Positions 45,559 to 49,596 of a stretch of 64,000 nucleotides of DNA are shown here, in pieces. The stretch lies in the sequence record PQ511150.1, one strand, 5' to 3'. A program made the translations under genes and the position numbers. The stretch comes from Escherichia phage NHEP29. How positions within the stretch are numbered: position 1 is the first letter of the stretch; every line of letters begins with the position of its first letter. A model generated the notes under the pieces. It was not told the DNA's origin and searched no databases. It saw only the letters and a program-made list of their open reading frames with translations.

Positions 45559-48500
45559 ATGGCTACTTTAAAACAAATACAATTTAAAAGAAGCAAAACC
45601 GCAGGCGCACGTCCTGCCGCTTCAGTATTAGCCGAAGGTGAATTGGCTATAAACTTAAAAGACCGTGTACTTTTTACTAAAGATGACCAAGGAAATATTA
45701 TTGATTTAGGTTTTGCTAAAGGCGGTAGTATTGACGGGAATGTTATTCATACAGGTAATTATAACCAAACCGGCGATTATACTTTAAATGGCACCTTCAC
45801 TCAAATTGGCGATTTCAATCTCAAGGGTATTGCTCGAGTAACTCGTGATATTATTGCTGCGGGTCAGATAATGACCCATGGTGGCGAACTTATTTCTAAG
45901 AGCGCCTCAACTTCTCACCTTCGTTTCTTTGATGGTGATGACCGTGAGCGTGGTATTATCTTTTCTCCTAATAATGCAGGAGCAACCAACCAAGTAGTTA
46001 ATATTCGCGTACAAGATTATTCTACCGCAAGTGAAAGCACCTATGCATTTTCGGGCAATGGTCAATTTACTTCACCTGAAGTATCGGCATGGAAATCTAT
46101 GTCAACTCCTCAGATTTTGACTGACAAAGTCATTACAGACGGGAAGAAGGCAGGTGATTATGACATTTATTCATTAGCAAATAATAATTCTAACACAGAT
46201 AAAAATAATTTACGTGTCGTACGTACCGACCCAGCGGCTGCAATGCTCCATGAAATTTGTGAAAATAACGGTATCAGTTGGTATTCTGGTTCAACCCCTA
46301 CTGATTATATGTTGTCTTTTGCTTATTCCGGTGGTTTTCAAGCAGGCCATTCGATTGCAGTAGGTATGGAATCAGGGCCTTTGACATATTCAGCTTTAGG
46401 TAAAGGTTCTATTGTTCTTGGTGATAATGATACCGGGTTTAAATGGCATCAAGATGGTTATTTCTTTAGTGTAAACAACGGTACAAGAACTTTCCTTTCC
46501 GGCCCTGCAGAAACAACCAGTCTTAGAAAAATGGTTATGGGTTATTCTGTAAACGGTACTGATTTAACTACGCCTCCGTCAGAAAACTATGCTTTAGCTA
46601 CTGTTGTTACTTATCACGATAATAACGCGTTTGGAGATGGTCAGACTCTTTTGGGATATTATCAAGGCGGTAACTATCATCATTATTTCCGCGGCAAGGG
46701 TACTACAAACATTAATACACACGGCGGTTTGTTAGTTACTCCTGGTAATATTGACGTTATTGGTGGTTCTGTTAATATCGATGGTAGAAATAATGCTTCT
46801 ACACTGTTGTTTAGAGGAAATACAACAGGATACAGCTCGGTTGATAATATGGATATTAAAGTTTGGGGTAATACGTTTGTTGATCCAAGCGGAGGTATCC
46901 GTAAAAACATTATGGAAATTTCTGATGCAACTGGCTGGATGAGCTATATTCAAAGACTTACTACTGGTGAAGTAGAAATGAACGTTAATGGTTCATTTGA
47001 ATCATCTGGTGTTACTGCTGGAGATAGAGGAGTTCACACAACAGGTGAAATTTCATCTGGAGCAGTGAATGCTCTTCGTATTTGGAACGCAGATTATGGA
47101 GCCATTTTTAGACGTTCAGAAGGAAGTCTTCATATTATTCCAACTGCTTATGGCGAAGGCGAAAATGGTGACATCGGTCCACTTCGCCCGTTTAGTATGG
47201 CTTTAGATACAGGTAAGGTCGTTATTCCTGACTTAGATTTGAGCTATGCTTCTTTTGCAGCAAATGGTTATATTAAATTTGGCGGTCATGGAGCAGGCGC
47301 TGGTGGTTATGATATTCAATATGTTCAAGCGGCTCCTATTTTCCAGGAAATTGATGATGATGCTGTAAGCAAATATTATCCTATTGTTAAACAGAAGTTT
47401 TTAAACGGTAAATCTGTTTGGTCTTTAGGTACCGAAATTGAATCAGGTACATTCGTTATTCATCATCTGAAAGAAGATGGTTCACAAGGCCATACGTCTC
47501 GTTTTAATCAAGACGGTACTGTTAACTTCCCGGATAACGTTCTGGCCGGCGGTGATATTAACATTAAAGGCATGATGACTTTTGAAGCCGGGCGTTTAGG
47601 ATCACGAGATTATTTTAAATTTAACCATTGGGGTGATAGTAATAATGCTCGTGATAACATCATCCAGTTAGAAGATAGTCAAGGCGCTCATTTTTCCACT
47701 GAACGTACTTTAGCGACAGGTGCAATTAAAACTCGTTTCTTTGGCGAAATATCCACTGATGGTACATTATACCTAAATCAGATGAATAATAGCTCTGAAC
47801 GATTCTCTATTAATAATTGGGGAAATTCAGAAGTTGGTCGCGCGGCAGTGATGGAAGTCAAAGATTCCAAAGGTTATCACTTCTATACGGAACGCAGGAC
47901 AGATAACAGTTTGAATTTTGATGTTGCTGGCAATTTTACTGCGCATGGACCTTCCGGAATAACCATCAAAAACTCATCTGGTGCACGACATATCTGGTTT
48001 AGAGATGATAGCGATGCAGAAAAGGCTGTTATCTGGGCTACAGATGATGGTATTTTACATATTCGCAATAATCATGGGGGTTCATTTAGTCATCACTTCC
48101 AGGGTGCAATGATTCTAGCGGGAGAGCGTGTTCCATATAATGGTGAATACGCTCTTATCCGTGGTAATATTTCCGGTGGTGCATGGGTAGACTGGCGAGA
48201 TCGTCCGGCTGGATTGTTGGTAGACTGTCAGGACTCACGAAATCAAGCATATAACATTTGGAAAGCTACTCATTGGGGCGAACAGCACATTGCGGCGATG
48301 GGTGTTCATGCTGGTGGTGGTAATCCTCATGTTGTATTGCATGTGGGTGGGAGTGATTATGCATTTGCAGTTAACGGTGATTTTACTGCTGGCGCTGCTG
48401 TATATTGTAACGACGTTTATATTCGTTCTGACCGTCGTCTGAAAATTAATGTTGAAGCATACGAAGAGAATGCGGTAGATAAGGTAAATAAACTCAAAGT

Positions 48501-48780
48501 TAAAACCTATGATAAAGTTAAATCTCTTTCTGATCGCGAAGTTATCGGCCATGAGATTGGTATTATCGCACAGGATTTGCAAGAAGTATTACCGGAAGCT
48601 GTTAGCACTTCTAGTGTCGGATCTCAGGATAACCCGGAAGAAATTTTAACAATTTCTAACTCTGCTGTGAACGCGCTTTTAATTAAGGCCATTCAGGAAA
48701 TGAGCGAAGAAATTAAAGAATTGAAAACGCCTCTCTTTACTAAAATTGCTCGCAAAATTAGTAAATATTTTAAATTCTAA
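45559..48780 (+). CDS. 37: long tail fibre distal subunit gp37 with C-terminal intramolecular chaperone domain
   Basis: 1073 aa; N-terminus matches T4 gp37 as recalled (MATLKQIQFKRSK...ASVLAEGELAINLKDR); C-terminal 115 aa contain the SDRRLK self-cleavage signature of S74 chaperone domains. Confidence 0.85.
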   Translation: MATLKQIQFKRSKTAGARPAASVLAEGELAINLKDRVLFTKDDQGNIIDLGFAKGGSIDGNVIHTGNYNQTGDYTLNGTFTQIGDFNLKGIARVTRDIIAAGQIMTHGGELISKSASTSHLRFFDGDDRERGIIFSPNNAGATNQVVNIRVQDYSTASESTYAFSGNGQFTSPEVSAWKSMSTPQILTDKVITDGKKAGDYDIYSLANNNSNTDKNNLRVVRTDPAAAMLHEICENNGISWYSGSTPTDYMLSFAYSGGFQAGHSIAVGMESGPLTYSALGKGSIVLGDNDTGFKWHQDGYFFSVNNGTRTFLSGPAETTSLRKMVMGYSVNGTDLTTPPSENYALATVVTYHDNNAFGDGQTLLGYYQGGNYHHYFRGKGTTNINTHGGLLVTPGNIDVIGGSVNIDGRNNASTLLFRGNTTGYSSVDNMDIKVWGNTFVDPSGGIRKNIMEISDATGWMSYIQRLTTGEVEMNVNGSFESSGVTAGDRGVHTTGEISSGAVNALRIWNADYGAIFRRSEGSLHIIPTAYGEGENGDIGPLRPFSMALDTGKVVIPDLDLSYASFAANGYIKFGGHGAGAGGYDIQYVQAAPIFQEIDDDAVSKYYPIVKQKFLNGKSVWSLGTEIESGTFVIHHLKEDGSQGHTSRFNQDGTVNFPDNVLAGGDINIKGMMTFEAGRLGSRDYFKFNHWGDSNNARDNIIQLEDSQGAHFSTERTLATGAIKTRFFGEISTDGTLYLNQMNNSSERFSINNWGNSEVGRAAVMEVKDSKGYHFYTERRTDNSLNFDVAGNFTAHGPSGITIKNSSGARHIWFRDDSDAEKAVIWATDDGILHIRNNHGGSFSHHFQGAMILAGERVPYNGEYALIRGNISGGAWVDWRDRPAGLLVDCQDSRNQAYNIWKATHWGEQHIAAMGVHAGGGNPHVVLHVGGSDYAFAVNGDFTAGAAVYCNDVYIRSDRRLKINVEAYEENAVDKVNKLKVKTYDKVKSLSDREVIGHEIGIIAQDLQEVLPEAVSTSSVGSQDNPEEILTISNSAVNALLIKAIQEMSEEIKELKTPLFTKIARKISKYFKF

Positions 48781-48785
48781 CAACA

Positions 48786-48802
48786 AGGGGGAAATGCCCC
48801 CT
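48786..48802 (+). terminator. hairpin terminator after gene 37
   Basis: AGGGGG-aaatg-CCCCCT then TTT. Confidence 0.55.
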
Positions 48803-48816
48803 TTGGAGTATAAATT

Positions 48817-49596
48817 ATGGCAGTAGTTGGAGTTCCTGGCTGGATTGGAAGTTCAGCCGTAAATGAAACGGGCCAGCGCTGGATGAGTCAAGCAGCTGGT
48901 CAATTAAGATTGGGTGTTCCTTGCTGGATGAGTCAATTTGCAGGTCGCTCAAGAGAAATTATTCATACACTTGGAGCAGACCATAACTTCAATGGTCAAT
49001 GGTTTAGAGACCGTTGTTTTGAAGCCGGCGGTGCACCTATAGTGTTTAATATCACCGGAAATTTAGTATCATATAGTAAAGATGTTCCTTTATTCTTTAT
49101 GTACGGCGATACGCCAAATGAATATGTTACTTTGAATATTCATGGTGGAGTTCATATGTGGGGACGAGGTGGTAACGGTAGTGTAAACGGAAACCCAGGC
49201 ACAAATGGCGGCGATGTAATCCAAAATGATATTGGTGGACGACTTCGTATTTGGAACTATGGCGTTATTGCATCAGGCGGCGGCGGTGGTGGTGCAGTGT
49301 CATTACAGAATAGCTGGGCGCCAAATGCTACAGCAGGTGGCGGTGGTGGTAGACCATTTGGCATCGGCGGAGGCGGCGTTAATTGGCCAGGTGGTAATGC
49401 TAGTTATGACGCCCCGGGCGGTGCCGGTTACACTTCCCAATTCGGCGGCGGCAATGGCGGTGATGCTGGCGCTCGTGGCGGAGATGGATGGGGTAATCAC
49501 TTATCTAGATCCGGCGGTGGTGCTCCTGGCAGAGCAGTATTCGGAAGTTCACCATCATGGGGTGCTACAGGCACAATCTACGGCTCCTGGATTTAA
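48817..49596 (+). CDS. 38: tail fibre adhesin gp38 (T2-type, glycine-rich motifs)
   Basis: 259 aa; N-terminus [11 protein letters not shown]...[24 protein letters not shown] as I recall for T2-type gp38; C-terminal half has poly-Gly motifs ([22 protein letters not shown]). Confidence 0.8.

Follow-up and report, generated by a model that had tools for sequence, protein, structure and literature searches.

In phage T4, the tip of the distal long tail fibre subunit gp37 binds the receptor and gp38 serves only as a chaperone (PMC6851490; PMC12892980; PMC12032242). A different arrangement is known from the family of T2, T6, K3 and Ox2 (Henning group 1986-89; Trojet et al. 2011), in which gp37 is proteolytically processed (PMC3157838; PMC12032242; PMC12892980) and glycine motifs alternate with hypervariable segments in gp38; T2 uses FadL and OmpF as receptors, T6 uses Tsx and K3 uses OmpA (PMC3157838). 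The gp38 of the Salmonella phage S16 (PDB ID 6F45, Dunne et al. 2018) consists of an attachment domain with three tryptophans, a beta-helix and a polyglycine-II sandwich, and it targets Salmonella OmpC, whereas PP01, a phage of E. coli O157 (PDB ID 9V85, mBio 2026), binds OmpC of O157 (PMC12892980). Here we analysed genes 37 and 38 of Escherichia phage NHEP29 within a stretch of 64,000 nucleotides of sequence record PQ511150.1, referred to below as the window. The original prediction, made from the DNA letters alone, had proposed a T2-type module at this locus, and this interpretation is supported overall. We estimate a probability of about 0.88 that the region is a T2/S16-type receptor-recognition module of a Mosigvirus-type T-even phage, including the mechanism proposed below. 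Every defining feature of the T2/S16-type gp37-gp38 system that can be read from sequence was found in it. The observations are the domain content, the conservation of catalytic and docking residues, the map of loops and motifs, the near-identity to adhesins of OmpF-dependent phages, and the mosaic junctions. The architecture itself has been known since 1986-87 and the locus adds no new biology: T2 gp37 was reported to be processed in 1986, hypervariable regions were described between glycine motifs in 1987, structures followed for the S16 complex in 2018 and for PP01 in 2026, and receptors were assigned to the near-identical adhesins in 2021 and 2025. The main features are as follows.

45559-48780, + strand: gene 37 (gp37), long tail fibre distal subunit, open reading frame of a 1073-residue precursor
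48427-48777, + strand: intramolecular chaperone, the self-cleaving domain of gp37, residues 957-1073 (117 residues)
48424-48429, + strand: predicted autocleavage site Arg956/Ser957 (DVYIR^SDRRLK), aligned to DLNVS^SDRRIKK of S16
48427-48429 and 48442-48444, + strand: predicted catalytic dyad Ser957/Lys962, intact, the Lys standing at +5 from the Ser
48817-49596, + strand: gene 38 (gp38), tail-fibre tip adhesin, open reading frame of 259 residues plus stop codon, whose last base is 49596

NHEP29 gp37 has 96-97% nucleotide identity to the annotated gp37 genes of the Mosigviruses SQ17, ChristianSchoenbein (Bas46) and phiC120. A Pfam search revealed the Peptidase_S74 domain (PF13884, "chaperone of endosialidase") at residues 957-1015, with an E value of 4.2e-14 and 53 bits against a cut-off of 22, covering positions 1-57 of the 58 in the profile. 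The domain is placed at the extreme C-terminus of gp37, as the S74 family requires, and the Ser957 codon, within the sequence DVYIR-SDRRLKINVE, begins at position 48427. Among solved structures, the C-terminus matched S16 gp37 (6f45_A, E 3.7e-13) in an alignment that spans SDRR[IL]K, and weakly the self-cleaving domain of MyRF ICA (7dc3, E 0.035). The Pfam score and the S16 alignment confirm the earlier claim that gp37 ends in an SDRRLK-containing intramolecular chaperone. A second domain match lies further upstream in gp37: with an E value of 3.5e-7 and 31 bits (cut-off 27), residues 449-546 matched Gp34_trimer, the domain by which the proximal fibre subunit trimerises at its C-terminus. The match indicates that gp34 and gp37 have fibre-shaft modules in common.

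S16 gp37 is reported to lose its last 113 residues by autocleavage between the two serines of DLNVS^SDRRIKK, and for T-even phages of Yersinia the gp37 cleavage site is given as DVYIR^SDGRLKI (PMC7917993). Because NHEP29 has DVYIR^SDRRLKI, gp37 is predicted to be cut between Arg956 and Ser957, releasing 117 residues. The residue before the predicted bond is Arg, whereas it is Ser in S16. Members of the S74 family use a Ser-Lys dyad with the Lys at +5 and cut N-terminal to the Ser, the equivalent residues being S911/K916 in endoNF and S587/K592 in MyRF (PMC8326128). We aligned 16 gp37 C-termini, namely 15 of the T2 type and that of S16. The dyad Ser was present in all 16 and the Lys in 15, the exception being a T6 record of 1998 with Asn at that position. 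The motif [DN]VY[IV]R-SDxRxK was kept in 14 of the 15 T2-type sequences, even where the remaining chaperone domain was only 33-46% identical; that of S16 is about 33% identical to NHEP29.

NHEP29 gp37 resembles the S74 domains of the endosialidase endoNF, the T5 L-shaped fibre and MyRF ICA in its Pfam family, the Ser/Lys(+5) dyad, predicted cleavage N-terminal to the Ser and a C-terminal helical segment. Outside the motif, the sequence similarity is only distant. The proposed outcome also differs, in that removal of the domain would expose the dock of a separate adhesin in NHEP29, whereas a receptor-binding or enzymatic tip is found in the other S74 proteins. One could suppose instead that the C-terminal domain is kept in the mature fibre as a non-cleaving chaperone remnant and that gp38 binds elsewhere. 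We regard this as very improbable, and nothing specific speaks for it. The Ser957/Lys962 dyad and its flanking motif are intact, and the whole domain is 97-99% identical to those of the viable isolates Bas46, phiC120, RB32 and T4_ev240 (99% for phiC120, Bas46 and SQ17). Moreover, gp38 of S16 sits on the gp37 beta-helix at its base (PMC6851490), the docking surface is reportedly exposed only after chaperone cleavage (PMC7917993), and proteolytic cleavage at the gp37 C-terminus has been reported for T2 and T6 (PMC3157838).

The gp38 open reading frame was tested against the Pfam families PF05268 and PF21721. Residues 47-259 matched the GP38 adhesin family (E 1.8e-83, 280 bits against a cut-off of 25) over the full profile, positions 1-218 of 218, and residues 1-42 matched Gp38_N (E 1.4e-20, 73.5 bits against a cut-off of 25). 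The scores of Peptidase_S74, GP38 and Gp38_N are all far above chance. The best match among solved structures was the receptor-binding domain of PP01 gp38 (9V85, E 1.5e-72, residues 38-258), with which it shares the beta-helix and glycine motifs and whose loops A-E map cleanly onto NHEP29 gp38, followed by S16 gp38 (6F45 chain D, E 8.5e-49), for which similarity is moderate. Relatives of gp38 were found in 812 phage records of the phage collection. For further comparison, we aligned 15 adhesins: those of NHEP29, phiC120, Bas46, SQ17, FL33, AugustSocin (Bas38), ACG-C40, VEc20, RB32, T4_ev240, AR1, T2, T6, FL12 and Bas45, with K3 and Ox2 left out. The domains, glycine motifs and variable loops of gp38 are listed here; the loops were transferred from those of the PP01 crystal structure (PMC12892980) through the adhesin alignment, loop A by way of AR1.

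48817-48942, + strand: N-terminal attachment domain, residues 1-42, the Gp38_N match, with Trp9, Trp22 and Trp37
49162-49530, + strand: glycine-rich region, residues 116-238
49162-49179, + strand: glycine motif GRGGNG
49180-49197, + strand: variable loop A, residues 122-127, SVNGNP (from PP01 W119-I124)
49207-49212, + strand: glycine motif GG
49276-49293, + strand: glycine motif G6
49303-49332, + strand: variable loop B, residues 163-172 (from PP01 Q161-V170)
49336-49350, + strand: glycine motif G5
49366-49377, + strand: glycine motif G4
49372-49386, + strand: variable loop C, residues 186-190, GGVNW (from PP01 N184-W189)
49390-49395, + strand: glycine motif GG
49417-49422, + strand: glycine motif GG
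49429-49443, + strand: variable loop D, residues 205-209, YTSQF (from PP01 N204-Y209)
49444-49461, + strand: glycine motif GGGNGG
49477-49482, + strand: glycine motif GG
49483-49509, + strand: variable loop E, residues 223-231, DGWGNHLSR (from PP01 N225-S231)
49513-49521, + strand: glycine motif GGG

As had been claimed, gp38 is a protein of 259 residues with a conserved N-terminal attachment domain. This domain resembles that of T6 more than that of T2: residues 1-42 are nearly identical to T6, with one difference, while about a dozen positions differ from T2. Overall, NHEP29 gp38 is 71% identical to T6, 53% to T2 and 65% to the adhesin of AR1, which is related to PP01. W9, W22 and W37 were invariant in all 15 adhesins and align to Trp residues of S16 gp38, in which three conserved Trp residues insert into pockets of the gp37 tip (PMC6851490).

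Glycine makes up 65 of the 259 gp38 residues and 46 of the 129 residues between positions 112 and 240. Considering the homology to 6F45 and 9V85 (PMC6851490; PMC12892980), the glycine-rich region probably folds as a polyglycine-II sandwich. The poly-glycine motifs expected around 49270-49400 were found as G6, G5, G4 and GG, but that range covers only the middle of the motif series, which extends from 49162 to 49521. The proposal that these motifs frame hypervariable segments held in the 15-adhesin alignment, which includes T2 and T6. Column entropy was 0-0.06 bits in GRGGNG and G6 compared with 1.2-1.8 bits between the motifs, and it was highest (1.79 bits) in the segment of residues 160-173, which contains loop B. 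An example of a small indel in a variable loop is provided by SQ17 (MW882907.1), which carries an in-frame insertion of 6 nucleotides (two residues, SR) in loop E at about 49502, changing HLSRS to HLSRSRS.

The closest adhesins belong to phages of both Mosigvirus and Tequatrovirus. NHEP29 gp38 is 99% identical to that of the Mosigvirus phiC120 and 98% identical to that of the Mosigvirus Bas46, whose receptor was determined experimentally as OmpF (BASEL supplementary table). It is 97% identical to gp38 of the Tequatrovirus FL33, for which OmpF with a weaker dependence on tolC was found experimentally (PMC12032242), and 94% identical to that of the Tequatrovirus Bas38, also OmpF by experiment. 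The PP01 adhesin has other loop sequences. NHEP29 gp38 differs from that of Bas46 by G72S, S122T, I183L and A219G, and loops B to E are identical. FL33 gp38 has nine substitutions relative to NHEP29, including three consecutive ones at residues 197-199. Among the 16 differences of Bas38 gp38, 10 are in the attachment domain (residues 6-36); the others are A54E and G72S in the beta-helix and S122T, I183L, A219G and R220W in the glycine-rich region. Because gp38 is nearly identical to three adhesins of experimentally OmpF-dependent phages, OmpF is likely to be the primary receptor of NHEP29, and the candidates offered by the original prediction (OmpA, OmpC, OmpF, FadL and Tsx) are predicted to narrow to OmpF. 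In practical terms, this predicts a likely escape route, through loss of ompF or through loop mutations.

The C-terminus of Bas38 gp37 is unrelated to that of NHEP29 gp37. Bas46, FL33 and Bas38 share the receptor-binding part of gp38 and all need OmpF; therefore, the need for OmpF is independent of gp37. This bears on the possibility that gp38 is T4-like, that is, an assembly chaperone of gp37 that is released, the gp37 tip itself binding the receptor. In several records the orthologue is indeed annotated as 'long tail fiber assembly catalyst' or 'assembly chaperone' (SQ17; KY703222 of phiC120), and T2-type gp38 acts first as a chaperone before it stays attached (PMC7917993). However, the full length of NHEP29 gp38 is covered by its matches to the adhesin family and to the two adhesin crystal structures, whereas the sequence of T4 gp38 is very different (PMC6851490). 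NHEP29 gp37 also has its own intramolecular chaperone, and specificity follows the receptor-binding part of gp38, not gp37, as Bas38 combines a shared C-terminal part of gp38 with an unrelated gp37 C-terminus and still uses OmpF. We consider a T4-like role of gp38 highly unlikely. The T4 arrangement is thus not found at this locus, where an S74 domain is present on gp37 and gp38 belongs to the adhesin family, which agrees with the contrast that the original prediction drew with the receptor-binding gp37 tip of T4 (PMC6851490; PMC12892980; PMC12032242).

Several points weigh against the assignment of the module and of OmpF. Cleavage of gp37, the presence of gp38 in virions and receptor use were transferred to NHEP29 from homologues. 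OmpF may be insufficient, given that RB69, a related Mosigvirus, is reported to require FhuA and the lipopolysaccharide (LPS) core besides OmpF (PMC3157838), and FL33 depends on tolC as well (PMC12032242). Furthermore, NHEP29 gp38 has S122 and A219, which are T and G in all five closest adhesins compared, including those of phiC120, Bas46 and SQ17. The change T122S opens loop A and G219A falls in the stretch from loop D to loop E, and single loop changes can shift specificity in this adhesin family (PMC3157838). A shift in the usable OmpF variants or in the co-receptor through T122S and G219A seems improbable; if it occurred, NHEP29 would be a natural, fine-tuned host-range variant of the Bas46/phiC120 adhesin. 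It is likewise doubtful that, within this architecture, another porin or LPS serves as the primary receptor, owing to the two substitutions or to a co-receptor need. Such a change would be helped by the position of T122S at the start of loop A, and one or two residue changes in the variable segments can alter receptor choice, as in SV76 compared with T2 (Trojet et al., PMC3157838). On the other hand, both substitutions are conservative (Thr to Ser, Gly to Ala), NHEP29 shares loops B to E with Bas46, and FL33 is more divergent with its nine substitutions yet depends on OmpF.

Mosaicism was analysed by identity profiles of 60 nucleotides against the fetched relatives. Over 25 kb, the window has about 96% identity to the Mosigviruses Bas46 and phiC120, which was also the best match over that length; no identical record was found in the phage collection. 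Over 48000-49700, the nucleotide identity to phiC120, Bas46 and SQ17 is 96.6-96.8%. These phages have the same gene order as NHEP29, and the Bas46 proteins are equal in length (gp37 1073 residues, gp38 259 residues). The Tequatroviruses T4_ev240 and RB32 are 95-100% identical from the gp37 C-terminus to about 49116-49129 and then fall to about 55%. Bas38 (MZ501052.1) shows no relation to the window before about 48950, where a linker joins the attachment domain to the beta-helix; from there on, identity is about 96-100% over a length of about 2.8 kb (48950-51750), through t, asiA and arn. The flanks of this block show the background divergence of 55-80%, and the usual identity between Tequatrovirus and Mosigvirus in t is 62-80%. 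The Bas38 block thus resembles a recent exchange between genera that comprised the OmpF-binding part of gp38 and the downstream genes. FL33 has gp38 in common with the window, but not t.

These profiles show that blocks of gp37 and gp38 are swapped between Mosigvirus and Tequatrovirus, and that the gp38 attachment domain moves as one block with the gp37 tip and the chaperone domain. Their joint travel agrees with the report that T2 gp37 and PP01 gp38 are incompatible as long as the N-terminus of gp38 is not exchanged (PMC12892980). The block boundaries, at about residues 44-48 and at residues 100-121 of gp38, could be used in host-range engineering. Exchanges have been reported in or near conserved motifs (PMC3157838; PMC12032242), with which our profiles agree.

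It had also been suggested that glycine-codon repeats make the locus prone to recombination. Direct repeats do occur among the glycine codon runs, namely CGGCGGTGGTG at 49281 and 49512 and a 25-nucleotide pair at 49269 and 49326. In VEc20, the break is exactly at 49180, the base after GRGGNG, and is accompanied by an insertion of 12-15 nucleotides and a different loop A. This junction at the end of the first motif is in line with the suggestion, but those at about 48950 and about 49116-49129 fall in conserved sequence without glycine runs, the T4_ev240/RB32 junction lying about 35-45 nucleotides before the first glycine motif. A strict confinement of junctions to the glycine codon runs was thus only partly supported and was set aside; the glycine runs are one among several junction sites.

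We also noticed a patch at 49005-49030 in which the window has nine differences in 26 nucleotides from most close relatives, including phiC120, Bas46 and SQ17. Most of them are synonymous, with one nonsynonymous change (G72S), and they include paired swaps of Arg codons, AGA to CGN at R64 and CGT to AGN at R66. For the stretch of 151 nucleotides at 48960-49110, no record of the phage collection was above 94%. This suggests that the patch was derived from an unsampled allele.

We propose the following mechanism for the NHEP29 module. gp37 would be made as a precursor of 1073 residues, the last 117 of which would act as an intramolecular chaperone of the S74 type and bring about trimerisation of the distal fibre. 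The Ser957/Lys962 dyad would then remove the chaperone between Arg956 and Ser957, and a single gp38, a stoichiometry that we infer, would dock on the new trimeric C-terminus of gp37. gp38 would plug in through W9, W22 and W37 of its attachment domain, while the rest of the protein would form the beta-helix and, from it, a polyglycine-II sandwich built by the glycine-rich motifs. The five variable loops on the distal face of the sandwich would contact the host outer-membrane protein, and their near-identity to the loops of the three OmpF-dependent phages points to OmpF as the primary receptor. The module would evolve by block exchange, one block consisting of the gp37 tip, the chaperone and the gp38 attachment domain, and the other of the receptor-binding part of gp38, sometimes together with downstream genes.

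Genes 37 and 38 are part of the T-even long tail fibre cluster, which occupies 39835-50301 of the window on the + strand in the order gp34-gp35-gp36-gp37-gp38-t. gp38 lies directly 3' of gene 37 and 5' of the holin gene t, as in the annotated relatives. The neighbouring features are listed below.

From 39835, + strand: gp34, 1277 residues, long tail fibre cluster
43677-44801, + strand: gp35, hinge protein, 374 residues
44861-45550, + strand: gp36, 229 residues
49630-50301, + strand: holin gene t, longest open reading frame, 223 residues, downstream of gp38
39793-39800, + strand: exact T4 late-promoter consensus TATAAATA, just upstream of gp34
44827-44834, + strand: exact T4 late-promoter consensus TATAAATA, just upstream of gp36
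49615-49622, + strand: exact T4 late-promoter consensus TATAAATA, just upstream of t
48786-48802, + strand: G+C hairpin AGGGGG-AAAUG-CCCCCU (6 bp, loop AAAUG) in the 36-nucleotide gap between genes 37 and 38, after the gp37 stop codon and ahead of the ribosome-binding site of gp38

The exact consensus TATAAATA precedes gp34, gp36 and t, whereas gp37 and gp38 lack it; therefore, genes 36-37-38 are probably a single late transcription unit. The consensus is not enriched in the window (10 occurrences compared with 7.6 expected). The ATG of gp38 is preceded by GGAG at 48805-48808, 8 nucleotides upstream. Because relatives annotate a gene of 660 nucleotides for t and GGAGG stands 5 nucleotides before the ATG at 49642, this ATG is probably the true start of the holin, giving a protein of 219 residues that begins with MAAPK.

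The folding of the hairpin at 48786-48802 was not significantly better than that of shuffled sequence (z -1.28), and a scan found a terminator-like pattern there on the minus strand only. The block of 60 nucleotides that contains it (48760-48819) has 100% identity in seven fetched relatives; RB32 and VEc20 differ from the window at 48791-48797 within the hairpin.

A shared domain has been described for phage gp35 and proteins of the FAM3 type. In NHEP29 gp35, residues 58-131 gave a borderline Pfam match to ILEI (interleukin-like EMT inducer / FAM3 family), with an E value of 1.2e-6 and 29.4 bits against a cut-off of 27.

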